This document shows, one piece after another, positions 858 to 19,102 of a stretch of 64,000 nt of DNA. The translations under genes and the position numbers were made by a program. Within the stretch, counting starts at the first letter, position 1, and every line of letters begins with the position of its first letter. The DNA is taken from NCBI GenBank assembly GCA_028709305.1, contig JAQVXE010000001.1, forward strand, positions 7,477-71,476, written 5' to 3'. The notes beneath the pieces were generated by a model. That model saw nothing but the letters and a program-made list of their open reading frames with translations, did not search any database and was not told the DNA's origin. The stretch comes from Bacillota bacterium (lineage in GTDB: Bacteria; Bacillota; DTU025).

Positions 858-1487
858 TTGATGCGCATCAGGAGACTGTTGGCGCTGGTGGCGCCGGCGG
901 TCATGCTTACTGTGGCGGCCTTGTCACTTGCTGGATGCGGACCCAAGAAAGACGTTGTTGTTACCCCGCAGACATTCATCTTCGACTGCGAAGCGAAAAA
1001 GGCGGCGGCCCAAGCGCGCGAGGAGGTAGACCGGCAGCAAAGGACTATCCCCGCAGGGATCATGGTCTCGGTCAGGCTGCTAGATGCGTTGAATTCTGCC
1101 ACGTCTATAGTCGGCGAAACATTCCGAATCGAAGTCCTGGAAGATATCATCATAGACGGCGCTGTAGTTGTTCCAGCGGGCAGCCCCGGCGTTGGCAAAG
1201 TGACCCTAGCGGTTCCCGCCAAATCCATGGGAAGGGCGGGAGAACTCCGTCTCTCAATGAATGCTATCTACACTTATGACGATATTCCGGTTCTGGTGGA
1301 GGCCAATGAACAGACTGCAGCGCGCGATGTGGAGTTAGCTGGCAAATCCTTTCTGGCCTACGTCTTCTTGGGCCCCGTGGGTCTCCTGACGCTGCTTCAA
1401 AAGGGGCAGAATGTCGTTATACCCGCCGATAGCCAGTTCTCGGTGATGGTTCGTATGCCTGTAACGGTGATGGGCAGGGTGTATTAG
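858..1487 (+). CDS. Lipoprotein (signal peptide + lipobox LAGC); possible short periplasmic adaptor/beta-barrel domain protein partnered with downstream MacB-type ABC transporter
   Basis: N-terminal MMRIRRLLALVAPAVMLTVAALSLAGC lipobox; located immediately upstream of FtsX permease/ABC ATPase genes. Confidence 0.5.
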   Translation: MMRIRRLLALVAPAVMLTVAALSLAGCGPKKDVVVTPQTFIFDCEAKKAAAQAREEVDRQQRTIPAGIMVSVRLLDALNSATSIVGETFRIEVLEDIIIDGAVVVPAGSPGVGKVTLAVPAKSMGRAGELRLSMNAIYTYDDIPVLVEANEQTAARDVELAGKSFLAYVFLGPVGLLTLLQKGQNVVIPADSQFSVMVRMPVTVMGRVY

Positions 1488-1530
1488 GCCGCTGGATATA
1501 TCTCAGGGCTGCTGAAAGGTTGATGAACGG

Positions 1531-2697
1531 ATGCACACGACGCTGCATTCAATCGCCGCGCTGCCGTGGCCTTGGACTTTCTTGCTGCGTAATAGATCGA
1601 AAGGCGTGCTATTGCTGCTTCTGGTAATGATGTCGGTTTTGGTGATTACGGCGATATCTGCGATCACCGATTCGGTCATGATGACGGTTTACAGGTCATC
1701 CGTTCTGGCATATGAGTATGCTTCCGTTATCGTATCGAAAGGCATCGGCGTACCGCAGCGTATTATAGATCACTTGCGTGATGCGGAATCGGTGGAACTT
1801 GTGCTTCCGTTTCTTGACTCATCTGTACGCGTAGTAGGAGTTTTGGGTAGCGAATCTAGGCCTGTCGTTGCAGTGCCTGCCCAAGAGTTCGAGACGGTGC
1901 TCAGCAAATTGCCTGTCGGGCTCAAGGGCGGACGACTGCCGCGCCAGGGCGAACCCGAAATAGCGATCCATGAGAGCATAGCCCAGGCCAAGGGCGTTTG
2001 GACCGGCGACCTAATAGGCAGGGAAATCGACTCTGATGACTACCTATGGGGCGCCTTCATGATAACCGGCGTTCTTGAAGGGGATATTCCTGTTTGTCTC
2101 GCGTCGCTGGAATACTTCAAAAAGCAGTGGGTCTACGACACGGGCGACTTGAATTACGCATACCTCGTATTTCCTGCGCTCGGGCGGTTCGAAGCCATGA
2201 ACGAAACCCTGGCCAATCTCCCAAGTGACGAAGTGACAATAACCACGCTGGAGTCTGTGAGACCAAGCTACAATGCAGAGTATTCCAACATTAGGCTGAT
2301 TATGTGGGCGGTGGATCTACTTGTAGTTGTAATCGTATCCACGGCCATGGGGTTGGTAAATACGGTTCACTATCTGAGCAGGCTGCGCGAATTCGCTCTC
2401 ATGTCAGCCATTGGCCTCACTCCTGCGACGCTCGTATTAAGGACTATCGTGGAAGTATTGAGCTTGGGACTTGTAGGCTTTGGCGCGGGGTTGGCGGCGG
2501 CCAAAGTGACCGTATCGCTGTTGTCAGCCTGTTTGTTTAGGCCGCGCGGGATAGAGATCGCTGGCATTGGCTGGAGAAGCATCGTATTCGCTATTCCAGT
2601 GCCGATTCTGGTATCAGTGTTCAGCACCATAACCATATGGTTCAACATTCTCAAGCTGGATGTTGTAGCTATGCTGGAGGGTCGCGATTGCTCATAA
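1531..2697 (+). CDS. FtsX/MacB-family ABC transporter permease (N-terminal TM, large extracytoplasmic domain, three C-terminal TM helices)
   Basis: Topology and length typical of FtsX/MacB-like permeases; translationally coupled to ABC ATPase. Confidence 0.7.
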   Translation: MHTTLHSIAALPWPWTFLLRNRSKGVLLLLLVMMSVLVITAISAITDSVMMTVYRSSVLAYEYASVIVSKGIGVPQRIIDHLRDAESVELVLPFLDSSVRVVGVLGSESRPVVAVPAQEFETVLSKLPVGLKGGRLPRQGEPEIAIHESIAQAKGVWTGDLIGREIDSDDYLWGAFMITGVLEGDIPVCLASLEYFKKQWVYDTGDLNYAYLVFPALGRFEAMNETLANLPSDEVTITTLESVRPSYNAEYSNIRLIMWAVDLLVVVIVSTAMGLVNTVHYLSRLREFALMSAIGLTPATLVLRTIVEVLSLGLVGFGAGLAAAKVTVSLLSACLFRPRGIEIAGIGWRSIVFAIPVPILVSVFSTITIWFNILKLDVVAMLEGRDCS

Positions 2698-3356
2698 CTA
2701 CGAGCGATGTCGGAATTTGCTTTTCAGCAGGTGACACCAAGACCTGGGCCCTAAGGCATGTGTCGCTATCGGTAGAAGCAGGACAGGTGATCATGATCTT
2801 TGGTCCTTCAGGAAGTGGCAAAAGCTCGCTATTGTACCTGCTGAGCGGCATGCGGCCAGCCAGTGAAGGTGAGGTGAGGTATGAGGGACGATTGCTTTCG
2901 GGCAGGAACAGCCGTCAGGTTCGGCAGCTACGGTTCACCGATTTCGGGTTCGTTTTTCAGCAGCATTTCCTGGTAGGGTATCTAACCGCTGTTGAAAATG
3001 TGTGTGCCGGGAGGTCGCACCGATATTTCGAACGAGCTTGCAATCTTCTTAAAGAGCTCGGCCTTGCAGACAAAACCAATGCATACCCCGCCCAGTTGTC
3101 ATACGGCCAGAGGCAGAGGGTCGCGCTGGCCAGGGCATTAGTTCATTCTCCAAAGGTAGTGTTTGCAGATGAGCCAACAGCCTCAGTGGATAGCGACATG
3201 TCAATAGAGATATGTCAGATTCTAAGCGACTACTGTGATCAAGGTGGCTCCTGCGTAATGGTAACGCACGATATGGCGCTGAAGACCTATGCTGACGTTG
3301 TATATAGCATGCGAGACGGGGTATTGAAGCCGGATACCGTGTGCGCAGGTGAGTAA
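2637..3356 (+). CDS. ABC transporter ATP-binding protein (MacB/LolD-type); true start probably near 2690 (TTG) overlapping permease stop
   Basis: Walker A GPSGSGKSS, ABC signature LSYGQRQRVALARAL, Walker B VVFADEPT, H-loop VTHD. Confidence 0.85.
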   Translation: MVQHSQAGCCSYAGGSRLLITTSDVGICFSAGDTKTWALRHVSLSVEAGQVIMIFGPSGSGKSSLLYLLSGMRPASEGEVRYEGRLLSGRNSRQVRQLRFTDFGFVFQQHFLVGYLTAVENVCAGRSHRYFERACNLLKELGLADKTNAYPAQLSYGQRQRVALARALVHSPKVVFADEPTASVDSDMSIEICQILSDYCDQGGSCVMVTHDMALKTYADVVYSMRDGVLKPDTVCAGE

Positions 3357-3375
3357 TTCATTTGGAGGTTAGACT

Positions 3376-3882
3376 ATGAGAAATCGCAAAATGCTAGTTA
3401 CTATGTGCGTGCTGTCTGCGTTTTTGCTTTTCGGCCTAACTGCATCTGCGTCGGCCAATAGCCGTACAGCTGTCAGCGTGAAGAGTGGATCTGGTACAGG
3501 TTTGTTCGGCTTGGAAATTGAACACAGATTCGAAAATGGGTTCGCGATCTGCCTGGAGGGTGGCGGCCTATATGTTCCAATGGGAGATGCCAAAGCGTGG
3601 TTTTTCGAGGGAGCCGTTAGCGGCAGATACTACTTTGTTCGCGGTGACATTAATCCTTTCGTCAGTCTTGGCGCGTTAGCTGTCGGGGGGGGAGTGGAAG
3701 CGGAGGAAGTCGAGGGCAAAGCTGTGATGCCGGGGATCATCGGCGTTGCAGGTGCAGAGGTTATGTTCAATCGGATTAGGCTTGCGGCGGAGCTTGGCTA
3801 TGAGGTTGTGTTCTCAGGTCCCCCCGACAACGAGAAATTAGCAGGACTCGTGTACGGGGTGAGCCTCGGCTATACCTTCTGA
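3376..3882 (+). CDS. Small secreted outer-membrane beta-barrel-like protein (OmpW/OmpA-like 8-strand barrel candidate)
   Basis: Signal peptide ending ASASA, alternating hydrophobic beta-strand pattern, C-terminal ...SLGYTF aromatic terminus typical of OMP beta-barrels. Confidence 0.5.
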   Translation: MRNRKMLVTMCVLSAFLLFGLTASASANSRTAVSVKSGSGTGLFGLEIEHRFENGFAICLEGGGLYVPMGDAKAWFFEGAVSGRYYFVRGDINPFVSLGALAVGGGVEAEEVEGKAVMPGIIGVAGAEVMFNRIRLAAELGYEVVFSGPPDNEKLAGLVYGVSLGYTF

Positions 3883-4512: not shown

Positions 4513-5004
4513 TTGCGAGTACTGACAGGAAGTAACCGAAGGGCGATTCTTGTGGCTCTTGTTCTGTGTCTGGCGGGGTTACAGATTGGCTGCGAGATCG
4601 CCGTAGACATAGGAAAGCCATATATCGGGCGCATGACACTTGACGTACCGAAAGTCGACCTCAGCATGGAGGCTGCCTATGAGGAGTACCTTGCGTGCCC
4701 GGGACAATACCGTGGCTACGAAGTCCAAGGGTACGGTGAAATCGTCTGTCCAGTCAGCACTTCTGTATTCGTGCTCAGGCTTGCTACCCTACGTGCTCGC
4801 TTTATGATGCTGGAGCTAGTAGGTGAAGCCAGAAGTGCGCCGCCTCTTCTGGTAGGCGATAACGTTTGGTTCGGGGGGTGCCTTGACGGAACCAGCTTGG
4901 ATATGGACTGGCACGTTCCTCACGTTGCCGACGATTATGGGGGAGAGGTGATGCCTCGTGTACAGATTTACTACATTCGGACGCTGTCAGGTAATCAGCT
5001 GTAG
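4513..5004 (+). CDS. Exported lipoprotein, paralog 1 of a tandem trio (OB-fold/BOF-like candidate); TTG start with strong RBS
   Basis: Lipobox LAGLQIGC; shared motifs ELVGEARS, VWF.G.LDG, PRV.(I/V)YYI with 5056..5499. Confidence 0.5.
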   Translation: MRVLTGSNRRAILVALVLCLAGLQIGCEIAVDIGKPYIGRMTLDVPKVDLSMEAAYEEYLACPGQYRGYEVQGYGEIVCPVSTSVFVLRLATLRARFMMLELVGEARSAPPLLVGDNVWFGGCLDGTSLDMDWHVPHVADDYGGEVMPRVQIYYIRTLSGNQL

Positions 5005-5055
5005 CGTGGCCACGGCCTTTCGCAGGGTCTATTAAGGGAAAGGAGGGACAATATC

Positions 5056-5499
5056 TTGTTCAAGGCGATACCGAATGGATGGCGCCGGATAATAGCTGTT
5101 GCGATTCTCTCTTTAGCAGTTGCGCAGGCGGGCTGCTATTTGGAGATCGAGGGCCACAGGATCGACTTGGATCGCAAGGCGCGCGAAGCCTACAAAGCCT
5201 ACATAAGCAACCCAGAGGAATACCGCGGACGTGAGATTGAGTGCAAAGGTGAAATCCTACAGGTTCTGCTTGACTTCACGTACCTGTTCTCCACAAACTC
5301 TGTTCCCGACAAGAGCTTTGTTCTGGAGCTTGTTGGCGAGGCCAGGAGCGGACCGATATTGCGGTCTAAGGACCAGGTATGGTTCAAGGGATTTCTGGAT
5401 GGGGTGTCTACCCAATGGGATATCATCACGATTTTGCGGGACAAGCATCGAAACCCGATACCGCGAGTGAAGGTTTATTATATCAAGGTAATCGACTAA
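5056..5499 (+). CDS. Exported lipoprotein, paralog 2 of tandem trio; TTG start with RBS aaaggaggg
   Basis: Lipobox AVAQAGC; clear sequence similarity to 4513..5004. Confidence 0.5.
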   Translation: MFKAIPNGWRRIIAVAILSLAVAQAGCYLEIEGHRIDLDRKAREAYKAYISNPEEYRGREIECKGEILQVLLDFTYLFSTNSVPDKSFVLELVGEARSGPILRSKDQVWFKGFLDGVSTQWDIITILRDKHRNPIPRVKVYYIKVID

Positions 5500-5950: not shown

Positions 5951-6980
5951 TCCCGATCGATTCGGTCTCAAATAGGGGATTGCTAGGGAAAACACTTGAA
6001 TCGTGGGTACTGGGCCCCGGGCTTGCCATGGCCTTAACGGGCCGCGCCTGTGACATGTTGTTAGGCTTATGGAATAAGGCCAAGCATTGTCGGCCAATGG
6101 CCTACAACTTGTGCGTGAGCAAGGAGGGTCGTCAGGTGAGCATCTGAAGGTGACCCTCCTTAGCTATCGAACCTAACCGGATTATCTGCTTAAGGCCTTA
6201 CGATGGCTCCGATTTGCACGTTCCGCAAATATCACAAGCTTGTGTGGCACACTAGAAAGCGCAACCCTCATGGTCGTCTCCATCAGCTCTCCGCTTGCCT
6301 ATGACATGAGGGCAGACTGGCCTTCTTTGCGGCAACCCTTGGGTGCAAACAGAAGTGCAATCGCCGGAATCAGAACGAACCCGCAGCCTAGAGCTGCGCT
6401 GCCTGTCTTCTTCTCCGAGTTCTCGGGTTTGCCCATATGAAACCGCAGCCCCCTACGTCGCCTTTTCCGCTCTTGGGCCTGGCGCGTTTTCTTGCTCGAT
6501 ACCTCCGGGCCCTATAGAGAAGAGTCCGTATATGGTATGACCCACGGCATACGCCCTACTTAGCGTACCACGCATTTTCTGAGGAGAAGACTGCGGCTTC
6601 CCATTCAGCTTACAGGCTCGTGCCCCAGACGACACTGCGATGATAGTGACGGGTGTCAGCGCAGGGTAGGCGACCGATATGACAGTGCCGAACCTCGACG
6701 GACTGAGAGTAGGAGTCAAATGGCACCCACCTGTAGCCATGCTGGCGAACATGCGGCAATCTTCTTGAGAAGCGCCTTAGTCTGGCCAATCACCAGCGTG
6801 CCACGATGCCAGTTGAAATCCTCGAGGGTCAACGACGCAAGCTTCGAACAGCGAAGTCACAGTTCAGATATGCAACGGAAATTGGGCATACACAGGCATC
6901 AAATTTCGCACACGAATACGAACGCGGCTGAGAATTGACGCCAGCCGCGTTTATCATAATGCCTGCCATATAACTATTTG

Positions 6981-7030
6981 ATATGGCGCGCCTGGCAGGA
7001 ATCGAACCTGCGGCCCACGGATTAGAAGTA
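6981..7030 (-). repeat. Partial copy (3' half through anticodon loop) of tRNA-Arg(TCT); 50/50 nt identical to 22211-22260; candidate distal att site of an integrated element
   Basis: atatggcgcgcctggcaggaatcgaacctgcggcccacggattagaag present at both loci; identity ends exactly in the anticodon loop. Confidence 0.75.
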
Positions 7031-7079
7031 GCCTGTGTGAGTGCTTCCTCGCACCTTCCTGTGACGAATATGCCCTCTA

Positions 7080-7800
7080 CGTGCGCCCTGTATGGAGTAT
7101 CCATATCGGGGCGTACGCACAATGACACCGTTTCCGCGTAGTTCGTGACCATCTTGTGACCACTCTCCGGCATGGTAATCCGGCATTGTGGCTAGCCTAT
7201 GTATGGTCACTGGACGTCCGTCCGAACTCCATCTGGTCAAAGGCGATTTTGCAGCATTACATCGGACTCAGCTCTCACGTATGCGGCAAAGACCGAGAAG
7301 GCAGGTTCGCGGTGATCCGCATTCCACGCAGAAAGGCCGTGCGCAAGTTTCTGGACCGGGTCAAGCAATGGCTGAAGGCGCATGGGCACTGGAGACCGCA
7401 CGGCCAGCAGGGTTATTTGAGCAGGATGCTGCGTGGGTTCTACCAGTACTTTGGGCTGTGCCACTGTACCCCAAGCTGGACTATGTGCGAGTCGAAGTTC
7501 AGAAGATGTGGGTGCGATCCCTACGGCGACGGAGCCAGCGGCGCCAACTGTCGTGGGATATCCTTAGCAGTCGGGCGCGGTTCCTGTTACCTGATCCCGA
7601 GGCGGTTCACAGGATAGTCTAGCCAGCTACGCGAGATCTTGGGGAGCCCGGTGCGGGAAATCCGCACGCCGGGTTCTGAGGGGGGGAAAGAGGCGCAAGT
7701 GCCATGCCGGCTTGTCGAGGGCACTGGCCCGAAAGGGCCGGCAAACGGTGAGACTCCACAAAGGCTAAGGCACAAGGCCTCTCTCTACCCACCTCCGGAT
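7080..7800 (+). mobile_element. Group II intron remnant: possible 5' GUGCG, truncated intron-encoded protein, intact domain V and probable domain VI
   Basis: Domain V hairpin GAGCCCGGUGCGGGAAAUCCGCACGCCGGGUUC at ~7640-7675 (AGC triad, GAAA tetraloop); IEP fragment upstream. Confidence 0.6.
7156..7617 (+). pseudogene. C-terminal fragment (domain X/maturase + Zn-finger-like tail) of group II intron reverse transcriptase/maturase
   Basis: RKAVRKFLDRVKQWLKAHGHW...LSRMLRGFYQYFGL matches maturase domain X pattern (R.W.NYY-like); no RT domains upstream. Confidence 0.55.
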
Positions 7801-7994
7801 CCGCGACACATCCGCCAAAACCCGTCCATAGCATGAACGCATCACAAAAGGCCATGCAAATGGGCATTGCGCGGCAAGCGTGCAGCGTACGGCACATATG
7901 CACGGCCCGCTATCGAATCCGAAGTACTCATGCCCACATTGGCTGCGTGCAGACACTGGCTGCTCAGCGAAGCCAAGATACTCATCGGGAATTC

Positions 7995-8399
7995 TCACTC
8001 GACTGACAGTGTGCGAAAGATATCGGCAAGTTGCTGTTTGCTCAGGCCCCCTGAAGCAACGTCGATCATTGCGACATATAGCGTTCCGTCCGGGTCGCGC
8101 GTCTCTATCGCGTTCAGCTCCAGAAAGACTAGAGCGCAAGCTAAGGCGGTTCGTTTGTTGCCGTCGACAAACGGATGGTTGTTGCAGATATGGAATGCGT
8201 AGGCTGCTGCCGCCTCGAAGATGTCTCTATGGAGGAACTCTCCTCCGAACGAGGCCTGAGGCATTGCCAGGGCCGACAGAAGAAGGTCGATGTCTCGAAT
8301 GCCGCGATGGCCACCGTATCGGTTCACTAGGTCCATGTGGACGTCGATCGCCTCATCCAGAGTCAAGAAGATTATACTGTCCATGCCAAAGCACCCCAT
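7995..8399 (-). CDS. doc: Doc/Fic-family toxin (death-on-curing)
   Basis: Fic motif HPFVDGNKRTA; size 134 aa; immediately downstream of AbrB-type antitoxin. Confidence 0.85.
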   Translation of the reverse strand: MGCFGMDSIIFLTLDEAIDVHMDLVNRYGGHRGIRDIDLLLSALAMPQASFGGEFLHRDIFEAAAAYAFHICNNHPFVDGNKRTALACALVFLELNAIETRDPDGTLYVAMIDVASGGLSKQQLADIFRTLSVE

Positions 8400-8417
8400 A
8401 AAGCCTGTAACTGCATG

Positions 8418-8645
8418 CTACTCCGCAAGTTTCCTGAGCGTGGACTCGTGTTCTGCGTTCACCTTGGCGAGCGCTGCCCCGAACAGCTCATCGTGTCCCG
8501 CGTCGCGCACAGGCGAGATGACCAGGTTCTTGCCGTCGGTGACGATCTTCAGGGGGGTGGTCATCGTTATGTCAAGCAGTTCCAGTATTGGTTTGTCGAT
8601 GATCAGCGCCGCGCTGTTTCCATGGGCGGTGAGAGTTTTGATCAT
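8418..8645 (-). CDS. Phd/MazE-like antitoxin with AbrB/SpoVT swapped-hairpin domain (start at internal ATG with RBS GGAGGGG)
   Basis: MIKTLTAHGNSAALIIDKPILELLDI... typical AbrB-fold antitoxin N-terminus; 4-19 nt upstream of doc. Confidence 0.7.
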   Translation of the reverse strand: MIKTLTAHGNSAALIIDKPILELLDITMTTPLKIVTDGKNLVISPVRDAGHDELFGAALAKVNAEHESTLRKLAE

Positions 8646-9025
8646 GGCTGCCCCTCCGGTCAGTATATTGTAATCACAATATATCACCGAACGCAGGCTG
8701 CAGCAAGCGAGCTTACGGTCACAGCGGGCCTACGGGCACGCATCGCGCATAGGCGACAGTGCAAGCCGGCCCAGAGCGAGGGCGTAGGCCGAAGCCATCA
8801 GGCCATGATCTTCAGAGTGTTCCCGGCAGTGTCCCTGCCCACGGTGATTGACAGTATGTTAAGGCGTTCTGGCTGAATTGTACGGCCTATTGGGAGGAGA
8901 ACGGAGGGAGGCCTGTCGAAGAGAGAGGCATCACATGAAAGGAGAGAGATGAAGGGCGCCGGATCGATGAGGTGCTAGCCTCTCCCCGGTAGCCGCTCCA
9001 TCTCCCATCAGCATCTTGATCGTAC

Positions 9026-9616
9026 TTGATTGCTGCGCGGATTGCGAGATCTTGCGACGAAGATGTGATTGAGTTGCTGCGTCGCGGGGTGCGGGAAGGC
9101 TTCGTAAGGTGTCCCGAGTGCGGGGGGCCCATGACGTTGAGAGGGAGCTATGGTCGGAACCTCTGGGTTGCCGAGGGTCCCGACACAGCGCAAGTCCGTA
9201 TGGTACGTGCTGAGTGCCCGCGGTGTGCACGCTCGCATTCCTTGATTCCTTCGGTGCTGACCCCACGGAGTCCCTATCCCCAGTGGATCCGAGAGAAAGC
9301 GGTGCAAGAGCACCAGAGGGGCAAACGCATGAGGGAAATATCGAGAGAGCTGGGTGTGCCGCGTACGACTCTGGGCAGGTGGATTCACGCTTTCAAAGCC
9401 AAGAGGGCAAGAATCGCGGCGGCCATGCGGGCGATTCTAGTCGCCTGCCGCCAGAAGACGGCCGAGGCGCGAGAAACGCTGGCTGAGCTTGTGGGGAGAG
9501 CGAGCCGGGCGTTGGGTTTCAAGGCCAAGTGCAGACTGGTTTCGAGTCAGACGAATGTCCTGTTGTGTTACGCGAAAAGCGAGGGCCATGTGCCCTGGAG
9601 CGTCCCATTGCTGTGA
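9026..9616 (+). CDS. IS-associated HTH/zinc-ribbon protein (CPECGG...CPRCARSH; HTH ISRELGVPRTTLGRW)
   Basis: Motif reading only; sits directly after the shared IS leader repeat and overlaps transposase ORF. Confidence 0.4.
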   Translation: MIAARIARSCDEDVIELLRRGVREGFVRCPECGGPMTLRGSYGRNLWVAEGPDTAQVRMVRAECPRCARSHSLIPSVLTPRSPYPQWIREKAVQEHQRGKRMREISRELGVPRTTLGRWIHAFKAKRARIAAAMRAILVACRQKTAEARETLAELVGRASRALGFKAKCRLVSSQTNVLLCYAKSEGHVPWSVPLL

Positions 9617-10989
9617 CCGCCACGAGATGGACCTCCCTGGCTGGACCTCTCCGGGATATGCTTGATGAGACGACAAACCGGGGAGGGGCGAGGATGAAAA
9701 AGGAAGATGATCGAACAGAACAGGCTCTGGAGAGGTACACGGCTGTTGCCCCGGCTGCGAAGTCGGGCATGAGCCGGGAAGAAGCATCGGAAGCATGGGC
9801 CGAGATCCGCGAGATGAGGGCCAGAAACGTGTCGTCCGGCGCGCCGGACGTGTCGATGCGCACCCTGAGGCGGTGGGCGGCGGCCTACCGGGATGAGGGG
9901 CTTGAAGGGCTGTACAGGAAAGAGAGGTCCGATACCGGATCCGCAAGGGCCCTAAGGTCCAATGTGTTTCAGCGTGCCATAGAGCTCAAGGAGGAGTTGC
10001 CTGGGCGCAGCGTCAGGCAGATCATCGACATCATGACGGCCGAAGGAACCATAGAGCCGGGTGAAGTTGCCAGATCCACGCTCGGCCGCCATCTGAAAGA
10101 AGCCGGGATGATGGATATCCCCAAGCGGACGCCGAAGGGAACCAGCAGGTTCGTCAAGGCACGGCCTAACCAGCTATGGCAGGGCGACATCAAGTACGGG
10201 CCGTACGTGCCGGACGCGTCGGGCAAGCCCAGGCGCACCTATCTCTTCGCCTTTATCGACGACTGTTCGAGGCTGATCCCCCATGCAGAGTTCTACTTCG
10301 ACCAAAAGGGCCACAGCCTGGAAAGCTGCGTGAGACAGGGGATTGTGAAACGCGGCGTACCCGAGGCGGTCTTCGTAGATAACGGGAAGGTGTTCGTGTC
10401 GCACGTATTCCGCGTAGCATGCGCCACGCTGGGCGTTCGGCACCTAACGGCTGCACCCTACAGCCCCCAAAGTAAGTACGCGGGTCTACTGGAGGCCGCA
10501 CACAGATCTGGGCTCAAAGACCTGCAGGTCAAGTTGATTCAGTCACCCAACAGGGACAACGGGTACACCGCTGTGTGCGAGGCCACCGCAGGGATCAAGA
10601 CCAGATCGCGGGAGAAGGTCTATGTCGAGATCGGGGATGCGGACCCAGCATCGATAGGCGACTCCAGGCTCAGCGTGCATGCCATAGGGATAGCGGCCAC
10701 TAGGGCCAAAGCGCGGGCGCTACGGGATGCGTTGCGCATGTCTATCTGCTCGGTGGAGGAACTGGCGCTTGGAGGGCCCCAGCGGGAGGTGTCGGATGCG
10801 CCTGCTCCATCCCAGGCTCCGTCTCAGGATAAGGCAACAGAGGCGCAGCTGCGAGTGCTCAGGATCCAGGCCGATAAGCTTCGACTGCCCGAGGAGGACT
10901 ATGCAAGGTTCGAGTGTATGACCAAGCGTGAGGCCTCGGACGCCATCAGCGACTTCAACCGGCGGCTGAGCAGGTCTCAGGCTGGCTAG
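9529..10989 (+). pseudogene. IS481-family (rve/DDE integrase core) transposase, likely degenerate at 3' end
   Basis: LWQGDIKYGPYV...YLFAFIDDCSRLI and ...FVDNGKVF DDE core; expected PYSPQTNGKVER motif degraded to PYSPQSKYAG. Confidence 0.55.
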
Positions 10990-11254
10990 CGGCAGGCAGC
11001 ATCCTATCCATGACTGGGGGAGGCCATGGCGACCTCCCCCCTTCGCGTATTCGATAGAGGATCGCGAAAGACGTGAAGTCTAGATTAAGCCCATTGATGG
11101 AAGGGTATTGGCAGGCGTGGGCGAACTATCCTATGGAGTTGGAGATACAAGTCTGTATTGTATGCGGTTTTCCAGATAGGCGGTGATCCAAGCCAACACG
11201 GCGTTAGCGGAATCCCAGCGTTCGTGTCTTGACAGAAGATCGGAGGTATGAGTA

Positions 11255-13012
11255 GTGAGAAGAGTACCGGTTCTACTCATGATCATGCTTTGCGTGTTCA
11301 TGGCAGGATGCGCCGGAGGGGGGTGCGATAAATACACTGCCTCAGGGCGAATAACCAGGGCCGACAACCCGCAGCAGGGCGTCGACGGGGTAACCATTGC
11401 TTTCAGTGGAGGTCATGGCACAGCAGGTACTGACGCCAGCGGCAACTTCAGTAAGGGTGGACTAAAGGGCCTCGTGAGCGTGACCCCGGCGAAAGAACAC
11501 TGGGTCTTCGAGCCCGTCTCGAGGCAGGTCAGCGGCGAATCGAGCAATGTGAACTTTGCCGGGCGCAGGTTGCTGACCGATGATGAACTGGAGGCAATCG
11601 AGACGACGAGCGAGCAAGCTACTCAGATGCTCGAATCAGGCAGCACGTACCAGCAGGTCGCCGACTGGCTCAGAGAGCAGAATTGCGTGGAGGAAGTATG
11701 TTACGAATCGGAGATATCGGAGATCCACGTAAAGTACCTAAGCGGAGGCTGGGAATTCTGGATGCCTGCTTCTCCCATGCCCGAAGATGCTGTGGAGTCA
11801 CAATCATTTGCGGAGTTCCCAGGCGTGAACCTTCCAAGGGGGCTTGTTAACCGAAGGGCTGCGGTCATTAACTGCTGGAGCAGTGAACCAAAGATGAGCT
11901 ACGCAAAGGAAGACTTGCTGGGTGCAGTGACTGTCCTGAAGCTGATGGGCTACAGGCCTGAGTACATAGAATCTGGGGGGGACATACTGGAATGCCTGAA
12001 GTCATTGAACGACTGCGCAGTGGTAGTCATGGTTGGTCACGGGAGTGGATCCGCGGATAGACCTCACTCTATCACCACTGGCCTTCCCTGGCAGGATTAC
12101 TATGGGGAGGAATGGTGCCAGGATCTATGGCGTAAGGGGAATGTCCAATACAGCGACAATGAAATCAGATCGTATGTATCAATACTACCGAAATTCTGGA
12201 CAACATACTACTCCAGTAAGCCTTTTGAAAGAACATTGTTTATTAACGGATCCTGTTCGCCATCGAAACCGCGCCCGGAAGGCCTGAACCATTGGGATGC
12301 GCTTTCACAGGTGGGCGTGGAATGTCACATTGGATACGATAGGCTCTGTCACACGGGCCCACTCATGGCCAAAGCCATGCTCAGCAAGCTGCAACTTGGA
12401 CAGAGTACGGGATTCGCCTTTGGTGCATTGCCATGGAACCTGAGGTATCTCTTGCTGCACAACTCTCATCTGAAGCTGGATGGGAATCCCAACCTCTGTA
12501 TAACGGGTCCCCTGCTGTCTACCATCAATATCAACCCAGCGGCTTATCTACTTCCTCAGAGTCAGTGGTCCGGATGGGGGCCGAGCCATCGGTGGTTTTG
12601 GGGACTCTACAGCCAAGCCTGGGGTGGCGGCGTAGGGAATCTCACCTATCATTTTTCTCTGGAAAATGCCATTCATGTAGCGGGAGCCACCATCATGGCA
12701 CGACTATCGGCCGAAACTCTTGGTTTTGGTGGAGGGCCCCCGGATGGGTATTCCGATGTGACCCTCTACCTCAATGGTACGCGTTACGATACGCAGAGAG
12801 TGATTCCAGACGATGGCAAGGGGCAGCGTTACGTATGGGTAGTAGACGGTACGGATATACGCGAAGACAATACATTCAGCTTCGCTGTCGAAGCAACTGC
12901 TGATTATAAGAATGGGCTGGTCATCTATCCAACTGACGACTTTCCCCGGGGTAATGATGACCCTATCACTATCCATGTGTACGGTTCGTTTGGCGGCGGC
13001 GGTGGATGGTGA
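11255..13012 (+). CDS. Large secreted lipoprotein; N-terminal carboxypeptidase-regulatory-like domain; central region with candidate caspase-fold (clan CD) His/Cys dyad (VVMVGHGSG ... FINGSCS)
   Basis: Lipobox FMAGC; H...C spacing ~75 aa as in gingipain/caspase-like peptidases; Gly-rich C-terminus. Confidence 0.45.
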   Translation: MRRVPVLLMIMLCVFMAGCAGGGCDKYTASGRITRADNPQQGVDGVTIAFSGGHGTAGTDASGNFSKGGLKGLVSVTPAKEHWVFEPVSRQVSGESSNVNFAGRRLLTDDELEAIETTSEQATQMLESGSTYQQVADWLREQNCVEEVCYESEISEIHVKYLSGGWEFWMPASPMPEDAVESQSFAEFPGVNLPRGLVNRRAAVINCWSSEPKMSYAKEDLLGAVTVLKLMGYRPEYIESGGDILECLKSLNDCAVVVMVGHGSGSADRPHSITTGLPWQDYYGEEWCQDLWRKGNVQYSDNEIRSYVSILPKFWTTYYSSKPFERTLFINGSCSPSKPRPEGLNHWDALSQVGVECHIGYDRLCHTGPLMAKAMLSKLQLGQSTGFAFGALPWNLRYLLLHNSHLKLDGNPNLCITGPLLSTININPAAYLLPQSQWSGWGPSHRWFWGLYSQAWGGGVGNLTYHFSLENAIHVAGATIMARLSAETLGFGGGPPDGYSDVTLYLNGTRYDTQRVIPDDGKGQRYVWVVDGTDIREDNTFSFAVEATADYKNGLVIYPTDDFPRGNDDPITIHVYGSFGGGGGW

Positions 13013-13508
13013 GGACTCATGGTCATCCAATGCCAGAAACAGCAGAAATCGAGTTGTGTATACGCCACATTGGAGTGAGCCTGGCCCCATTCCTCCGGCA
13101 GATGACCTACATCAGGGTTGATGATAAGCTTCTTCGTTTTCATTGCGCACCTAGAATAGCCTGAAATGAACAGGCCATTTCAGTAACTTTCAGCTGATGC
13201 CAAGACTTCTGCAGTTCATATGGTAATGGAGGAGTACAACAACAAATGCCACGAGGCTCCCTTCTCTAGTATGCTTGGGTTGAACAAAACCGCAGCTAGA
13301 GGAGTGATCTCGTGGCTAGACCAAGTATACCACGCGGGCGAGTTTCTGGAAACGTGTCTATGCGGCTGACGGGCATGAAACGTCAGGTTACCTCATTGGG
13401 AGGCCTTCCGGCGGTTAGGATGGCTTGGGACACGCTTGGCATGAACTGCATCCTCCTGGAGCACGGTTTTGAGAAGCGGAGCGGAGTGCCGGCTACGGAG
13501 CTTTTGCC

Positions 13509-14645
13509 GTGACGGTTGAGCATCTCGCTCAAGCCCGATCCAATGTCGAATTGGAGAAGGCACTACAGGATCCGGTTTTGGCCGCGTGCATCGGCGGTCG
13601 GCAGGTAGACGAGACAACGCTCTCAAGGTTTCGCAACGACAACCGTTTCGACTGGGGCGGAGTCTTGGAGGGTGTAGGTGAGCGCCTTCAGGCCTTTGAC
13701 TTGACCCGAGCAGATGAAGAAGGAATTCTGATTGTCGACGATACGATCGCCGAGAAGGCGGGAGAGAAGATTGAGGGCGTTCGGAGGCTGTATGATTCTT
13801 CAGCCGAAAGGTACGTGACCGGGCATTCGATAGTGAACCTTGTGTATTCGGGCAGACGCGTGTTCTACCCGTTGGCGTGTGAAATCGTGCTCCCCAGCAG
13901 CGACGGTATGGAGTACCTCACCAAGAATGATCTTGCGCTGTGCATGCTTAAGGGCGCTGTGCGGAGAGGCTTCAGGCAGACGGTGGTGCACGACTCGGCG
14001 TACCTATGCGATGACCTCATGCAGTTCCTAGATTCCGCAAACGTGCCCTGGGTCTCCAAGTGCAAGAGCAACCGGATCCTGGTCTACCGCGGGCAAAGGC
14101 TTCACGCCCATGAGCTCGGCTCTATACTTGCCAGGAGCAGGTTCCGGAGACACAAGCGCTACCGCGACATCGAATACGCGTCGGCCATTGCTGAACTGCC
14201 TGGTCACGGTCTGTGCCGGTTCGTCGTTGTGAGAAACTTCAGGGAAGATGAGCCGGAAGGAGCTGACGTGGGAGTCAAATACCTGCTCGCAAGCGATGAA
14301 AGCGTACACGGATCAACGGTGGTGCGGCTGTACAAGATGCGCTGGAAGGTGGAAGAGCATCACCGTTCGGCCAAGCAGGATCTGGGGCTAAAGGATTACC
14401 AGGGGCGGAAGCTCCGGGGCGTCATAGCCCATCTGATGTCGGTTGCCCTCGCGCACATACTCGTCGTGTTCATGAAAGCATGCCTGCCGAGGTTGAAAGG
14501 CGCCAGCACGGGACAGCTTGTCCGCGACTTCATATGCACATCGTGCCGCGTGAACAGCCACGGGGCGAGGCTAACCGTTCTGTATGATAGGATCCTGCCA
14601 TACTCAGAAGCCATACGGCATTACCAAATGGCTCGTGCTGGTTAG
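13509..14645 (+). CDS. IS4/IS701-family DDE transposase
   Basis: ILIVDDTIAEK..., YKMRWKVEEHHRSAKQDLGL (Y-x2-R-x3-E-x6-K signature). Confidence 0.8.
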   Translation: MTVEHLAQARSNVELEKALQDPVLAACIGGRQVDETTLSRFRNDNRFDWGGVLEGVGERLQAFDLTRADEEGILIVDDTIAEKAGEKIEGVRRLYDSSAERYVTGHSIVNLVYSGRRVFYPLACEIVLPSSDGMEYLTKNDLALCMLKGAVRRGFRQTVVHDSAYLCDDLMQFLDSANVPWVSKCKSNRILVYRGQRLHAHELGSILARSRFRRHKRYRDIEYASAIAELPGHGLCRFVVVRNFREDEPEGADVGVKYLLASDESVHGSTVVRLYKMRWKVEEHHRSAKQDLGLKDYQGRKLRGVIAHLMSVALAHILVVFMKACLPRLKGASTGQLVRDFICTSCRVNSHGARLTVLYDRILPYSEAIRHYQMARAG

Positions 14646-14932
14646 TCTGGAATCTCAACTGCAGAAGTTTTGTGATGCAATCAGGTCTATTGATGGTACG
14701 CCAGAAGCTGTGATAGCGTAAGGCTCTTGCTACATCAATACCGGCCCAAAGCGCTCAAATACACACAGTAGTGTTGACTACGCCCTACGAAATCTGCCTT
14801 TGCAGGGCCCTACCACGTAACGGAGGCCCTCTGTTGGACTCCTTCAGTGTTGTAGAGTCCGCGGTTCAGCATTTTTTCTGAAAGCAGCCTGAGGAAGCAG
14901 GTACTATGCGACGGATGTCGAATGCATAAAGC

Positions 14933-15646
14933 ATGAACGACACAGTCATTGCCACAACCAATGAAATAGCCGAACTTAGGGGCTTGGCTGAGCAGTATGC
15001 TGAACTCTGTATTCTCGTTGACCAACTGAAGTAAGAAAACGCTGAGCTAGCCGCCAAAGTCAAGTGGTATGGAGAGCAGTTCCGCTTGAGCCAGAAGCGG
15101 CGCTTCGGCGCTTCCAGCGAAAAGACGGATTGCGAGCAATTGCGGCTCTTCAACGAAGTTGAGGCGGAGGCTCAACCGCTTCTGGCTGAACCTACGATCG
15201 AAAAAATCACCTATCAGCGCCACAAACAAAAGGGTCGGCGCGAGGCTATCCTTTCTGACCTGCCCGTGGAGACGGTAGAATACCGCCTTCCAGAAGAGGA
15301 GCAGGTCTGTCCCTCTTGTGGCGGCCCTTTGCATGAGATGAGCACTGAAGTGCGGCGAGAGCTTAAAGTCATTCCCGCTCAGGTTAAGGTCGCAGAGCAT
15401 GTGCGCCTCGTCTATTCTTGCCGCCGGTGTGAGCAAGAAGAGATCAATACGCCTGTAGTAACAGCGCCGATGCCTGCGCCTGTATTGAAAGGGAGCCTGG
15501 CTTCACCTTCAGCCCTGGCCTACATCATGACCCCAAAATACGTTGAAGGCATGCCGCTCTATCGCCAGGAGCAGCAGTTCGCCCGTTTGGGAATAGGCCT
15601 TTCCCGACAGACGCTGGCTAACTGGATGCTCTACGGGGCCAAGAAT
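14933..15646 (+). pseudogene. IS66-family transposase TnpC N-terminal part; in-frame TAA at 15031-15033, then interrupted by IS21 insertion; short continuation at 18433-18503
   Basis: [30 protein letters not shown] leucine-zipper/Zn-finger region, CPSCGG...[29 protein letters not shown]; resumes WLTPLYERMHEHLL after IS21. Confidence 0.7.
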
Positions 15647-15654
15647 TGCATATT

Positions 15655-15835
15655 CCGGCCCAAATCGTCCACCGATTCCGGGACAATTCGTCCACCCATT
15701 CCGATTGAACTCGTCCACTGATTCCGGAGCAAACAATCCACCGTTTCCGGAGCAATTCGTCCACTGATTCCGGCTCAAATCGTCCATCGATTCCGGAGCA
15801 ATTCGTCCGGGGCGGCTGCCTCGGTTCGGAGCTGA
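15655..15835. repeat. Array of ~6 sub-terminal direct repeats (~24 nt, core TCGTCCAC.GATTCCGG) at IS21 left end; mirrored inverted at 18270-18430
   Basis: Visible iterated 'tcgtccac(c/t)gattccgg(a/g)gcaa' units; IS21 family known to carry multiple terminal transposase-binding repeats. Confidence 0.7.
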
Positions 15836-15914
15836 AGCACGCCGGCAACAATGCCACAGGATAGCCGCGTAGAGTCACCGAACTCCCGTAAGCAAGATGC
15901 TTCTAGGAGGGTGA

Positions 15915-17462
15915 TTGAGGGCTGTGGCAAACAGGAGGTTGTCGATGCGCAAGATCAAGGAGATTCTGAGGCTTTATCACGAGGTGGGGTTGAGCCGTCG
16001 CCGGATTGCCGAAAGCCTACAAGCTGCCCATAGCACTGTCGGCGATGTGATCAGGAGAGCCAACGGCGTCGGGCTCGGCTGGCCGATCCCGGACACCATG
16101 ACTTGGGACGATGTGGAGCGTTTGCTTTATCCGGGCAACACGAACAAGCCCAGGACGAGGCCTATGCCGAAGTGGGAACAGATCCACCGCGAGCTTAAGA
16201 GCAAGAAGTCCGTTACCCTGCAGCTTCTATGGTATGAGTACAAGCAGGAAAATCCGGATGGAGTCCAGTACAGCCAGTTCTGCGCCTACTATCGCGAATG
16301 GGTACGCAAGCTTGATGTTGTCATGCGGCAGACGCATCGCGCCGGAGAGAAGATGTTCGTGGACTTCGCCGGACAGACCGTACCGATACGGGATCGGACC
16401 TCGGGCGAAATCAAGGAGGCGTACGTGTACGTTGCGGTATTGGGGGCGAGCAACTATACGTATGCGGAGGCCACGATGACGCAGGATCTGAAATCATGGG
16501 TGAACTTGACCCGGAACGCCCTGGAGTTCTTCAAGGGATCGACGGAGATATGGGTACCCGATAATCTCAAGACCGGAGTGACGAACGCATGCCGCTACGA
16601 GCCGGACATAAACCCTACCTACAGCGAGATGGCCGAGCATTACGGCGCGGTGGTTATCCCGACGCGGCCCCGAAAGCCGAAGGACAAAGCGAAGGTCGAG
16701 AAGGGAGTGCAAGTGGTAGAGCAATGGATACTGGCCGCAATACGCAAGATCACCTTCTTCGACCTGCACCAGCTGAACGGCGTCATCAAGGAGAAGCTGG
16801 ACGTACTGAACAACAAACCGTTTCAGAAGATGGACGGGACGCGCAGGTCCGTGTATGAGCAGATAGATAAGCCGGCGCTCAAGCCCCTTCCGCAGACGCC
16901 CTACGTGTTCGCTAGATGGAAGAAGGCAACCGCTAACATCGACTATCACATTTCGGTGGACCACAACCTATACAGTGTTCCGTACACCCTCGTAGGCCAT
17001 GAGCTCGATGTTCGCCTAACTGGTAGCACCGTGGAGGTATTCAGCCGGGGCCAAAGGGTAGCAATCCATCAGAGGGCCATAGGTCGAGGGCAGGTCGCCA
17101 CGGAACCAAGCCACCGGCCCGTATCGCACCAAAAGCACCTCGAATGGACGCCCGAACGAATGATACGCTGGGCTGAATCGGTGGGGCCCAACACTGGCAA
17201 GCTCGTGAAGATGATACTCGAAAGAAGGCCCCACCCGGAACAGGGATACCGCTCGTGCCTGGGGATCATCAGACTGGCGAAAGCCTATTCAGCGGAGAGA
17301 CTGGAAGCGGCGGCAGCCAGGGCGCTGGCGCTGGGAGGCATCTCATACAAGAGCGTAAAGTCCATTCTCAAGAACGGGCTGGATCAGGTTCCCCTGCCCG
17401 ACCAGACGCCTCAGGCGATGCCCGCCCATACCAATGTCCGCGGACCAGGCTACTTCAACTAG
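15915..17462 (+). CDS. istA: IS21-family transposase IstA
   Basis: N-terminal HTH, rve DDE core (FVDFAGQT..., YVAVLGASNYTYAEA), length 515 aa. Confidence 0.9.
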   Translation: MRAVANRRLSMRKIKEILRLYHEVGLSRRRIAESLQAAHSTVGDVIRRANGVGLGWPIPDTMTWDDVERLLYPGNTNKPRTRPMPKWEQIHRELKSKKSVTLQLLWYEYKQENPDGVQYSQFCAYYREWVRKLDVVMRQTHRAGEKMFVDFAGQTVPIRDRTSGEIKEAYVYVAVLGASNYTYAEATMTQDLKSWVNLTRNALEFFKGSTEIWVPDNLKTGVTNACRYEPDINPTYSEMAEHYGAVVIPTRPRKPKDKAKVEKGVQVVEQWILAAIRKITFFDLHQLNGVIKEKLDVLNNKPFQKMDGTRRSVYEQIDKPALKPLPQTPYVFARWKKATANIDYHISVDHNLYSVPYTLVGHELDVRLTGSTVEVFSRGQRVAIHQRAIGRGQVATEPSHRPVSHQKHLEWTPERMIRWAESVGPNTGKLVKMILERRPHPEQGYRSCLGIIRLAKAYSAERLEAAAARALALGGISYKSVKSILKNGLDQVPLPDQTPQAMPAHTNVRGPGYFN

Positions 17463-18234
17463 GAGGCCCGATGAAATGTTGGTTGAACACACCATAACAC
17501 GGCTGAACGACATGCGCCTGGCCGGAATGAGCGAAGCCTATTCGTGGCAAAGGGAAAAGCCCAACATACATGAGTTGTCTTTCGACGAACGCTTCGGCAT
17601 GCTGGTTGACCGGGAATGGGCTTGTCGGCAGGACAGACGGCTGTCTCGCCTGCTCAAGGCGGCCAAGTTGCGTCTCCCGGCATGCGTTGAGGACATCAAC
17701 TACCGGCAACCCCGCGACCTCGACCGGAACACTATCGTTCACCTGGCTGCATGCGATTGGATCAGGAACGCTCAGAACGTCCTGATCACCGGGCCGACGG
17801 GCGTGGGCAAGACGTTCATAGCCTGTGCCCTGGCTCACTCCGCTTGCCGCCACGGATTCAGCGCGCGGTACTACAGAGTGCCGCGCCTGCTATCCGAACT
17901 AACTGTCGCCCATGGCGACGGATCGTATCCCCAGTTGCTAAGCAGACTGTCGAGGACACGCCTACTGATATTGGACGACTGGGGAACGGCGCCGCTGGGG
18001 CCCTCGGAAAGCCACGACATCCTGGAGATCGTCGACGATCGCAGCCAGCTGTCCTCCACGATCATTGCCGGCCAACTCCCGGTTGAAGACTGGCATGCAT
18101 CTATCATCGACCCGTCCGTGGCAGATGCAGTCCTTGACCGCCTTGTTCACAATTCACACAGAATACGCCTGAAAGGGGAGTCGATGAGGAAGGTAGAGCA
18201 GCGACCGCAGCGAACCATTGACCAAGGGACATGA
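17434..18234 (+). CDS. istB: IS21-family helper ATPase IstB (true start likely ~17473)
   Basis: Walker A GPTGVGKT, Walker B LLILDDWG, IstB-like length. Confidence 0.9.
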   Translation: MSADQATSTRRPDEMLVEHTITRLNDMRLAGMSEAYSWQREKPNIHELSFDERFGMLVDREWACRQDRRLSRLLKAAKLRLPACVEDINYRQPRDLDRNTIVHLAACDWIRNAQNVLITGPTGVGKTFIACALAHSACRHGFSARYYRVPRLLSELTVAHGDGSYPQLLSRLSRTRLLILDDWGTAPLGPSESHDILEIVDDRSQLSSTIIAGQLPVEDWHASIIDPSVADAVLDRLVHNSHRIRLKGESMRKVEQRPQRTIDQGT

Positions 18235-18547
18235 TCCCATACCGTGCGTCGCTTCGCTCCGACCTGGCCAGCCGGGGCCTTTCAGAACCACCGGATTCTT
18301 TGCCCCGCGGAACAGGTGGACGAATTGCCCCGGACCAGCTGGACGATTTGGATCGGAACAGGTGGACGAATTGGGCCGGAACGAGTGGACGCTTTCCTCC
18401 GGACCAGGTGGACGATTTCATCGGAATACGCAAGAACTGGCTCACACCCCTTTATGAAAGAATGCATGAGCATCTTCTAGGAGCCTGTGCGAGTAATATC
18501 TGAATCGGAGTACAGGAAAACGCAGCTACATAGCGAATTAACATAGT

Positions 18548-19036: not shown

Positions 19037-19102
19037 TTCGGCGGCCGAAATGTGCATAGGCTAACCGCCGCGCCTGGGGTTGGGTCTTCGTACCCTTCGG
19101 GG

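Follow-up and report, generated by a model that had tools for sequence, protein, structure and literature searches.

The current study concerns a compact operon of four genes, P1 to P4, found in a 64,000-nucleotide stretch of contig JAQVXE010000001.1, which belongs to a metagenome-assembled genome (MAG) of digester origin named "Bacillota bacterium". This whole stretch is referred to below as the window; all position numbers are those of the window, and the genes are labelled in their 5' to 3' order. Both the list of open reading frames (ORFs) and a direct reading of the DNA place four co-directional ORFs at 861-3882 on the + strand, which encode a lipoprotein, an FtsX-like permease, an ABC ATPase, and a secreted protein of 168 amino acids (Table 1). 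The original prediction, which was made from the sequence alone, had described just such a linked set, and all four genes are present on the + strand where it placed them. Its ORFs can be retained with small adjustments to their boundaries: P1 most likely starts at ATG 861 rather than TTG 858, with a GGAGG located 8 nt upstream, and the gap that precedes the 168-aa gene is 19 nt by count rather than 20 nt. A further adjustment concerns P3, which most plausibly starts at TTG 2688 with a GGAGG 7 nt upstream (2676-2680), and public gene calls on identical contigs begin the gene at the same codon. P1 and P2 are thus 43 nt apart, P2 and P3 overlap by 10 nt, and the ATG of P4 at 3376 lies 19 nt beyond the P3 stop (3356).

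Table 1. Positions of the operon genes and of the other window features discussed in the text
Feature	Position	Strand	Description	Basis
P1	861..1487	+	Lipoprotein, 208 aa	Lipobox LAGC, Cys26; predicted VirB10/TrbI C-terminal-domain-like fold
P2	1531..2697	+	Type VII (MacB/LolC/FtsX-type) ABC permease, 388 aa	Pfam FtsX, hydropathy
P3	2688..3356	+	ABC ATPase, MacB/LolD/DevA/FtsE clade, 222 aa	Pfam ABC_tran, NCBIfam
P4	3376..3882	+	Secreted protein, 168 aa, predicted 8-stranded outer-membrane beta-barrel	Signal peptide, C-terminal beta-signal, model
P5	4513-5004	+	Small envelope protein	Lipobox
P6	5056-5499	+	Small envelope protein	Lipobox
P7	5537-5950	+	Small envelope protein	N-terminal transmembrane anchor
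Mobile-DNA patch	~6000-21400		Variable region
Group II intron domain	7642-7794			Rfam
Fic/Doc gene	7995-8399	-
Lipoprotein, 585 aa	11255-13012	+	No family match	Lipobox MAGC
P-loop protein, 440 aa	46317-47639	+	NCBI name cyclic 2,3-diphosphoglycerate synthase	Weak Pfam match to CobW-type NTPase only
ORF, 414 aa	47796-49040	+	Likely second, larger outer-membrane protein	Signal peptide, strand-like segments, weak family matches
Multihaem c-type cytochrome gene, 202 aa	63530-64000	+	Complete in L112 at 10398-11006	Eight CxxCH haem-binding motifs

An operon conserved as a unit of four genes

The four proteins occur verbatim in NCBI MAGs named "Firmicutes/Bacillota bacterium" as well as in approximately 20-30 contigs from digester and biogas metagenomes, and the genome bins that carry the operon (hereafter the cassette) include GCA_028703975.1 and GCA_046128215.1. 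Nei-Gojobori pairwise dN/dS values range from 0.04 to 0.26 across P1-P4, with P4 the fastest-evolving member. Given these values, the identical public copies, and the same four-gene order in two further lineages, P1-P4 are genes under purifying selection and not chance ORFs. An Rfam scan yielded no match within or near the cassette, promoter and terminator scans returned counts no higher than expected from shuffled sequence, and PADLOC recognized neither P1 nor P4, its matches to P3 being those of a generic ATPase. A 99-aa ORF upstream (329-628) was considered as a further member and set aside, as it is not conserved in the other lineages and its sequence is implausible.

The order P1-P2-P3-P4 and near-equal spacing are kept in three lineages: that of the window, a second (loci L007-L011 and L115-L118), and a third (L096-L099 and L121-L123). 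Relative to the window, the second lineage is 76-80% identical in P1 (a range that spans tblastn to global alignment), 80% in P2, 86% in P3, and 64-65% in P4, and the corresponding values for the third are 74%, 63%, 69%, and 52%. A fourth lineage, with P1, P2, and P3 at 54%, 50%, and 56% identity, retains P1-P2-P3 as far as its short contigs extend. The surroundings differ in each case. In the window lineage, PIN, amidase, and acetyltransferase genes lie upstream and three small envelope protein genes (P5-P7) downstream; in the second lineage the cassette is flanked by genes for LemA, a D-Ala-D-Ala carboxypeptidase, and a type I restriction-modification (R-M) system, and in the third by those for DUF998, an acetyltransferase, an RCC1-repeat protein, and a transposase. 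The DNA upstream of the cassette is conserved between the two closest lineages only. We regard both the list of parts and their linkage as well supported.

Every P4 homologue at least 51% identical to that of the window follows the ATPase gene and none that is 42% identical or less does so; therefore, a cassette-specific P4 subfamily exists. P1-like domains of approximately 25-30% identity likewise sit in other contexts, away from ABC genes. Since these distant homologues of both proteins are found elsewhere, the conserved module consists of exactly four genes, in which each partner belongs to a subfamily peculiar to the cassette. Extending the linkage to the distant P4-like barrels or to the P1-like proteins P0047 (which carries a PEGA domain) and P0048 (Thermovirgaceae) was rejected, as none adjoins ABC genes. 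A locus with a P2 relative of 31% identity (L100) was also rejected, being a different, two-permease system, and P5-P7 were discounted as core parts owing to their absence from the other lineages. Two of the distant P4-like barrels (31-41% identical; L092 558-1797 and L125 781-3845) adjoin other secreted proteins, namely a 224-aa lipoprotein ending in QVRF in one case and a 763-aa acidic protein of TPR-like appearance in the other, which suggests that the periplasmic partner of this family of barrels varies from one organism to another.

The cassette is rare. Counted as 90%-identity protein clusters in a word-indexed set of 5.8 billion proteins, the P1 family comprises 16 clusters, the P2 family 7 related clusters, and the P4 family 2; a search of 1.84 billion representatives returned 13 P4 matches, about 10 of them full-length, and the P4 family amounts to roughly a dozen representatives at 50% clustering. 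No relatives of the cassette were found among viral contigs. Its confinement to a few lineages and its position in variable DNA rich in insertion sequences (IS), toxin-antitoxin (TA) modules, and R-M systems make an accessory role more plausible than that of a core equivalent of Lol. Such a setting points to, for instance, a function in resistance or immunity, or the export of a lineage-specific product.

Several neighbouring features deserve mention. P5-P7 are paralogous and lie directly downstream of the cassette in this lineage only; P5 and P6 are 35% identical to one another, and P6 has a weak match to the Slp lipoprotein family (0.027). They could be cargo or they could be unrelated. The cassette sits at the edge of a mobile-DNA patch that includes a group II intron domain, a Fic/Doc gene, two IS21 transposase/IstB pairs, an IS66 fragment, and both DDE and rve transposases. 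A 585-aa lipoprotein is encoded there as well; over its first ~105 residues it shares 50% identity with the N-terminal part of the RCC1-repeat protein found downstream of the third-lineage cassette (L096-L098).

Predicted properties of the four proteins

The sequence of P2 yields a hydropathy profile with a first transmembrane (TM) segment at residues ~25-48 (21-54 at its widest), a hydrophilic, extracytoplasmic loop of ~200 aa, and TM2-4 at ~251-376. Profile searches of the kind proposed in the original prediction had mixed outcomes: P2 matches Pfam FtsX (6.2e-7; 29.9 bits versus a gathering cut-off of 25.5), MacB_PCD gave no match at E ≤ 1, and no HlyD/MFP adaptor was found. With hhalign, the P2 family aligns collinearly with E. 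coli LolC through the loop and TM2-3, but only weakly (E 0.0018, probability 15%), and neither E. coli MacB nor E. coli FtsX gave a useful alignment, with no signal at all for the latter. A search of PDB sequences with P2 produced weak matches only, the best being YtrF (E 0.057) and a Streptococcus pneumoniae permease. P3 contains a Walker A motif (GPSGSGKS), the signature LSYGQ, a Walker B motif (VVFADE), and an H-loop, and it matches Pfam ABC_tran at 7.5e-32. Its top NCBIfam matches are DevA (4.4e-51), LolD (1.3e-50), MacB (2.2e-47), and FtsE (5.5e-46), all below the equivalog cut-offs; for the LolD model TIGR02211, the score is 172 bits against a cut-off of 307.75. In the same NCBIfam scan, P2 matched no LolC/E model. 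From the four-TM topology, the FtsX domain, and the clade of the nucleotide-binding domain (NBD), P2 and P3 can be assigned to the MacB/Lol-type (type VII, ABC3) transporters as a permease-ATPase pair, which bears out the MacB/FtsX-type transporter that had been predicted here. A cell-division or hydrolase-activating system of the FtsEX type was considered and rejected, given the ~200-aa external loop and the lack of any hhalign signal to E. coli FtsX. Family scans of the cassette loci likewise found no coiled-coil, LytM, or CHAP partner of the EnvC/PcsB/RipC/CwlO type.

The predicted lipoprotein partner is also upheld. The N-terminus of P1 reads MRIRRLLALVAPAVMLTVAALSLAG immediately before Cys26, which forms a classical L-A-G-C lipobox, and the cysteine is followed by a short linker (~30 aa) and a helix, then by a beta-rich domain. 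A structure model built on a 13-sequence alignment is confident in its core (residues 58-150 and 185-207, beta-rich, with pLDDT mostly at 75-95), whereas confidence is low for residues 151-180 and for the linker that follows the lipid anchor. Two independent structure-comparison methods place the modelled globular domain in the VirB10/TrbI C-terminal-domain (CTD) fold. In type IV secretion, this domain forms a ring under and through the outer membrane, where its two-helix antenna (structure 3JQO) lines the pore. In sequence, the resemblance stays below threshold. P1 itself matches no curated family in Pfam or NCBIfam, TrbI (PF03743) included at E ≤ 1, although 7 of 13 relatives of P1 show weak sub-threshold TrbI matches in Pfam (best 0.014). 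The P1 family gave no hhalign signal either against A. tumefaciens VirB10 alone or against a 5-member VirB10 CTD alignment assembled from PDB matches (probability 0.4%), and a PDB sequence search with the family profile returned nothing significant. A role for P1 as an HlyD/MacA adaptor or as LolA/LolB was rejected, as its modelled fold is that of the VirB10 CTD and no LolA/LolB match was obtained.

Between the last strands of the P1 domain lies a conserved hydrophobic loop, at approximately residues 151-180 (KSFLAYVFLGPVGLLTLLQKG). In and around this insert, G161, P172, L178, G182, and P188 are invariant even in homologues of only 25-26% identity. When the sequences are read by eye, the P1 motif IPAG..V.V.L.......G..F...V..D....G..V.P.GS.G.G.V......GR.G.L appears to be collinear with VirB10, and a later motif (...IPADS.F.V.V) can be set against ...IPPTL..QGD.V.I.VARD of VirB10, an arrangement likewise made by eye and not with an alignment tool. 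Read in this way, the hydrophobic insert would occupy the position of the VirB10 two-helix antenna.

P4 was originally proposed to be an outer-membrane protein (OMP)-like beta-barrel with an OMP-type C-terminus, and the present results favour the same assignment. Its signal peptide ends in TASASA, with cleavage after ASA27 and before NS, leaving a mature part of ~141 residues that ends in GVSLGYTF and thus carries a beta-signal of the form V-x-L-G-Y-x-F. An AlphaFold2 model based on a 10-sequence alignment (mean pLDDT 86.7, pTM 0.72) contains eight long antiparallel strands of 9-20 residues linked as hairpins. The likenesses listed for it, with their figures, are a Legionella outer-membrane barrel (15.8), the OmpA TM domain (15.5), NspA (14.7), OmpW (14.7), and a Thermus major OMP (14.6), together with CarO, PagL, and OprH. 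All family members share the terminal Phe and, before it, the pattern G-x-x-x-G-Y/x-x-F without variation. By a crude test, one face of the strands carries 32 large hydrophobic or aromatic residues and the other consists mostly of Gly/Ala and Glu/Arg, much like the interiors of OmpA and OmpX. No Pfam or NCBIfam match was found for P4 itself, a PDB sequence search with its family profile returned nothing significant, and no curated OMP family threshold (Pfam clan MBB) is reached; the sub-threshold Pfam matches of its relatives are exclusively to outer-membrane barrel families (Legionella_OMP 3.3e-5, PagL 0.0015, OMP_b-brl 0.022). P4 nonetheless combines the structural features of small 8-stranded outer-membrane barrels, namely a Sec signal peptide, eight antiparallel TM strands, and an aromatic C-terminal beta-signal, and we predict, with high confidence, an 8-stranded outer-membrane beta-barrel of the small monomer type. 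The possibility that P4 serves as a TolC/OEP duct was rejected, based upon its ~141-residue, 8-stranded mature barrel and the lack of an OEP match.

The host envelope, a proposed mechanism, and its alternatives

An outer-membrane protein presupposes an outer membrane, and the original prediction had reasoned that such a unit would be unusual here unless the organism were diderm. The housekeeping synteny of the window is of the Firmicute type (tig-clpP-clpX-lonB-lon, then fusA, valS, and folC). Within this core DNA, between lon and fusA, lies a 414-aa ORF whose product begins with a signal peptide, contains numerous strand-like segments of amphipathic character, and ends in GEIQVSMKF. Its family matches are both weak and are to outer-membrane barrels only (EpsL 7e-5, MtrB/PioB 0.045), and no homologue was found at this position in the ValS-related genomes examined; it is likely a second, larger OMP. 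In a ValS scan of GTDB genomes, the best among the matches listed are 57-59% identical and include Bacillota MAGs and the MAG DUQQ01 ("Hydrogenispora sp."), the species itself not being among the matches listed, and with identities of only this order the taxonomic placement of the host is approximate. DUQQ01 shares 84.8% average amino acid identity with Capillibacterium thermochitinicola (OPB54), a spore-former with an outer membrane visible by transmission electron microscopy and with 3-OH fatty acids (PMC8375423). Limnochordia constitute the third diderm class of Firmicutes, are common in digesters, and are known mostly from digester MAGs (PMC11456536). Because of the second OMP-like ORF and the OPB54/Capillibacterium-type ValS relatives, the host is likely diderm, so that the earlier expectation appears reasonable, short of proof. 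The two OMP-like genes of the window also flag this abundant digester lineage as a likely additional diderm of the spore-former type.

Transporters of the MacB type (type VII) convert ATP hydrolysis into movement of an external domain that acts upon a partner, and they carry nothing across the cytoplasmic membrane (PMC5985334). By virtue of its family membership, a P2 dimer together with P3 would constitute such a mechanotransmitter and reside in the cytoplasmic membrane. ATP hydrolyzed on the cytoplasmic side would drive motion of the ~200-aa external domain of P2, and no substrate would cross this membrane. P1 and P4 are put forward as the partners of the motor because they are the conserved partner genes here, and they would stand in place of the usual ones, either a MacA/HlyD adaptor with TolC or LolA/LolB. 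The ABC motor would then push on P1, which is probably an oligomer by analogy with VirB10, and P1, through its hydrophobic loop and/or lipid anchor, would make contact with the outer membrane jointly with P4. Anchored or partnered by P4 in this manner, P1 might let a periplasmic or membrane-associated substrate (a peptide, a toxin, or a lipid-linked molecule) leave to or across the outer membrane. Any specific substrate could be named only with low confidence. The general proposal, i.e. a four-gene accessory envelope operon in which P2/P3 exert trans-envelope mechanotransmission through P1 and P4, is our preferred reading, and we judge its prospects to be about even. A bolder version is conceivable and is offered more tentatively. 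The cassette could be a trans-envelope ABC machine of diderm Firmicutes, of a kind not described before, in which a MacB-type motor drives VirB10-like lipoproteins arranged in a ring. Their conserved hydrophobic loops would enter the outer membrane next to a small OmpA-like barrel or encircle it, yielding a tripartite exporter, or a dedicated inserter of lipoproteins or OMPs, assembled from parts of the type IV secretion kind instead of the MFP/TolC kind in a lineage reported to lack Lol.

A number of points weigh against trans-envelope mechanotransmission. The link among the four proteins is a genomic one only, and the genes conserved beside the cassette do not include one for a substrate (for instance, a bacteriocin precursor). 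As mentioned above, P2 has no MacB_PCD match. Since the hhalign comparisons gave no signal, any homology of P1 to VirB10 concerns the modelled fold only; in addition, the antenna-like loop belongs to the low-confidence part of the model, is shorter than the two helices of VirB10, and is assigned to the antenna position from a reading by eye rather than a residue-by-residue alignment. The 8-stranded barrel of P4 has no obvious export channel. Lastly, the diderm status of the host derives indirectly from its relatives and from OMP-like ORFs.

Several other explanations can be envisaged, the most durable of which is that P2 and P3 form an ordinary Firmicute resistance or immunity pump of the FtsX family (of the YknYZ, SalXY, or HrtAB kind) confined to the cytoplasmic membrane, with P1 and P4 as co-transcribed structural bystanders. 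The Joint Genome Institute (JGI) name of a distant permease relative, "ABC-type antimicrobial peptide transport system permease", is in keeping with this possibility, MacB-type pumps without outer-membrane partners are common (PMC5985334), and the nearby TA modules, R-M systems, and IS elements would suit an accessory resistance trait. Several observations speak against it. The four-gene linkage survives a divergence of P4 to ~52% identity and three changes of neighbourhood, the P4 homologues outside the cassette form a different and more distant subfamily, the overlaps and short gaps are of the type associated with translational coupling, and P1 and P4 are under purifying selection as are the pump genes. 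We therefore view this explanation as unlikely.

Somewhat poorer still are the prospects of a self-contained Lol-like sorter, in which the ABC pair would extract a lipoprotein (P1 or one of the neighbouring lipoproteins at 4513-5499) and P4 would act as the outer-membrane receptor, thereby offsetting the missing LolA/LolB. One permease gene paired with one ATPase gene resembles the single-permease Lol systems. LolD is among the best ATPase matches, the longest hhalign alignment of P2 is that with LolC, and lipoboxes occur in P1, P5, and P6. A substitute of this sort is conceivable in principle, as Lol and outer-membrane lipoproteins are reported to be practically absent from the Terrabacteria (bioRxiv 10.1101/2021.05.31.446380). 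The Lol-like unit raised in the original prediction nevertheless fares badly: P3 falls far short of the LolD equivalog cut-off, no LolC/E model is matched, neither P1 nor P4 has a LolA/LolB-like fold, and P5-P7 are missing from the other lineages. Furthermore, an occurrence in only a handful of lineages (the P2 family has 7 clusters among 5.8 billion proteins) and a location in variable, IS-rich DNA are not what would be anticipated of a core sorting function.

A monoderm host, with P4 as a secreted beta-barrel of the avidin/lipocalin kind that is either soluble or bound to the cell wall, is very improbable. The Firmicute-type synteny would fit such a host, and no gene of outer-membrane biogenesis was seen directly in the DNA read for envelope genes, which comprised the 64-kb window and the ±10-kb flanks of the matching contigs. 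On the other hand, the length of the P4 strands, the invariant terminal Phe and G-x-x-x-G-Y-x-F motif, a non-hydrophobic strand face dominated by Gly/Ala and Glu/Arg, and the restriction of the weak matches of its relatives to outer-membrane barrel families all run contrary to it, as does the second OMP-like ORF. The VirB10 fold of P1 is likewise known as a diderm feature. Finally, P1 could be left over from a system for type IV secretion, conjugation, or competence, or could assist one, with the ABC genes as unrelated neighbours. Its VirB10/ComB10 fold and the nearby mobile elements recall such a system, but this notion is scarcely credible in view of the P1-P2-P3 linkage conserved in four lineages, a lipoprotein anchor in place of the VirB10 N-terminal TM segment and Pro-rich region, and the lack of VirB4, VirD4, VirB9, VirB8, or relaxase genes among the scanned window ORFs and at all cassette loci.

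Two further genes of the window may be noted. One encodes a P-loop protein that carries the NCBI name cyclic 2,3-diphosphoglycerate synthase, an enzyme known mainly from thermophilic methanogens. The other, which runs off the end of the window, encodes a multihaem c-type cytochrome and directly follows genes for a Rex-like repressor and an RseC/MucC-like protein.

Comparison with known systems

Among the known systems closest to the cassette is MacAB-TolC (E. coli MacB b0879). Both have a 4-TM permease in which TM1 and TM2 are separated by a large extracytoplasmic domain, and an ATPase of the MacB/LolD clade, mechanotransmission is expected of both, and both encode an outer-membrane protein in the same operon. 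In contrast, the cassette NBD is a separate polypeptide, MacB_PCD is not recognized in Pfam, and the partners are of another kind: P1 is VirB10-like in its predicted fold rather than a MacA/HlyD adaptor, and P4 is a predicted barrel of ~141 residues rather than a TolC/OEP duct, with no TolC-like gene found in the cassette loci. The MacAB-TolC-like unit suggested by the original prediction accordingly finds no counterpart among the partner proteins. LolCDE (or LolDF) resembles the cassette in having a separate ATPase with a single type of permease, in the rank of LolD among the P3 matches, in the weak collinear similarity of P2 to LolC, and in the lipoprotein genes found in and beside the operon; it differs in that the cassette scores far below the equivalog thresholds and has no LolA/LolB, and in that Lol is both core and essential whereas the cassette is very narrowly distributed and lies in variable DNA.

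The Gram positive MacAB-like systems, such as B. subtilis YknXYZ, S. pneumoniae Spr0693-0695, and YtrEF, are similar in a different respect. They are likewise found in Firmicutes, combine a separate NBD with an FtsX-type permease, and serve accessory roles of the resistance type, and the best PDB sequence matches of P2, weak as these are, belong to this group. However, their adaptor (YknX, SpMacA) is of the HlyD type, and none of their components lies in an outer membrane. As for the individual partners, P1 shares with the VirB10/TrbI/ComB10 CTD of the type IV secretion outer-membrane core complex a hydrophobic insertion that, judged by eye, falls at the antenna position, and VirB10 too is actuated by inner-membrane ATPases. 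Unlike VirB10, P1 has no significant sequence-profile match, a lipid anchor replaces the TM helix and Pro-rich linker, the insertion is of ~30 residues instead of two long helices, and the neighbouring partner is an ABC transporter with no type IV secretion genes nearby. P4 is set apart from OmpA/OprF-N, OmpX, NspA, and OmpW by falling under every Pfam OMP threshold, by the lack of a periplasmic OmpA_C or SLH domain, by its operonic association with an ABC transporter, and by the small size of its family.

The known partners of type VII ABC motors are MacA-TolC, LolA, EnvC/PcsB, and BceS, and full-text searches of the literature turned up no account of a MacB/FtsX-type transporter with a VirB10-like partner. 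P1 and P4 are best read as a set of partners new to the type VII ABC mechanotransmitters. The cassette also bears on how diderm Firmicutes handle lipoproteins and export across the outer membrane. A conserved pairing of an ABC motor with a VirB10-fold lipoprotein and an 8-stranded outer-membrane barrel would add a new class to the list of such partners, and it would also constitute a VirB10 domain at work outside of type IV secretion.

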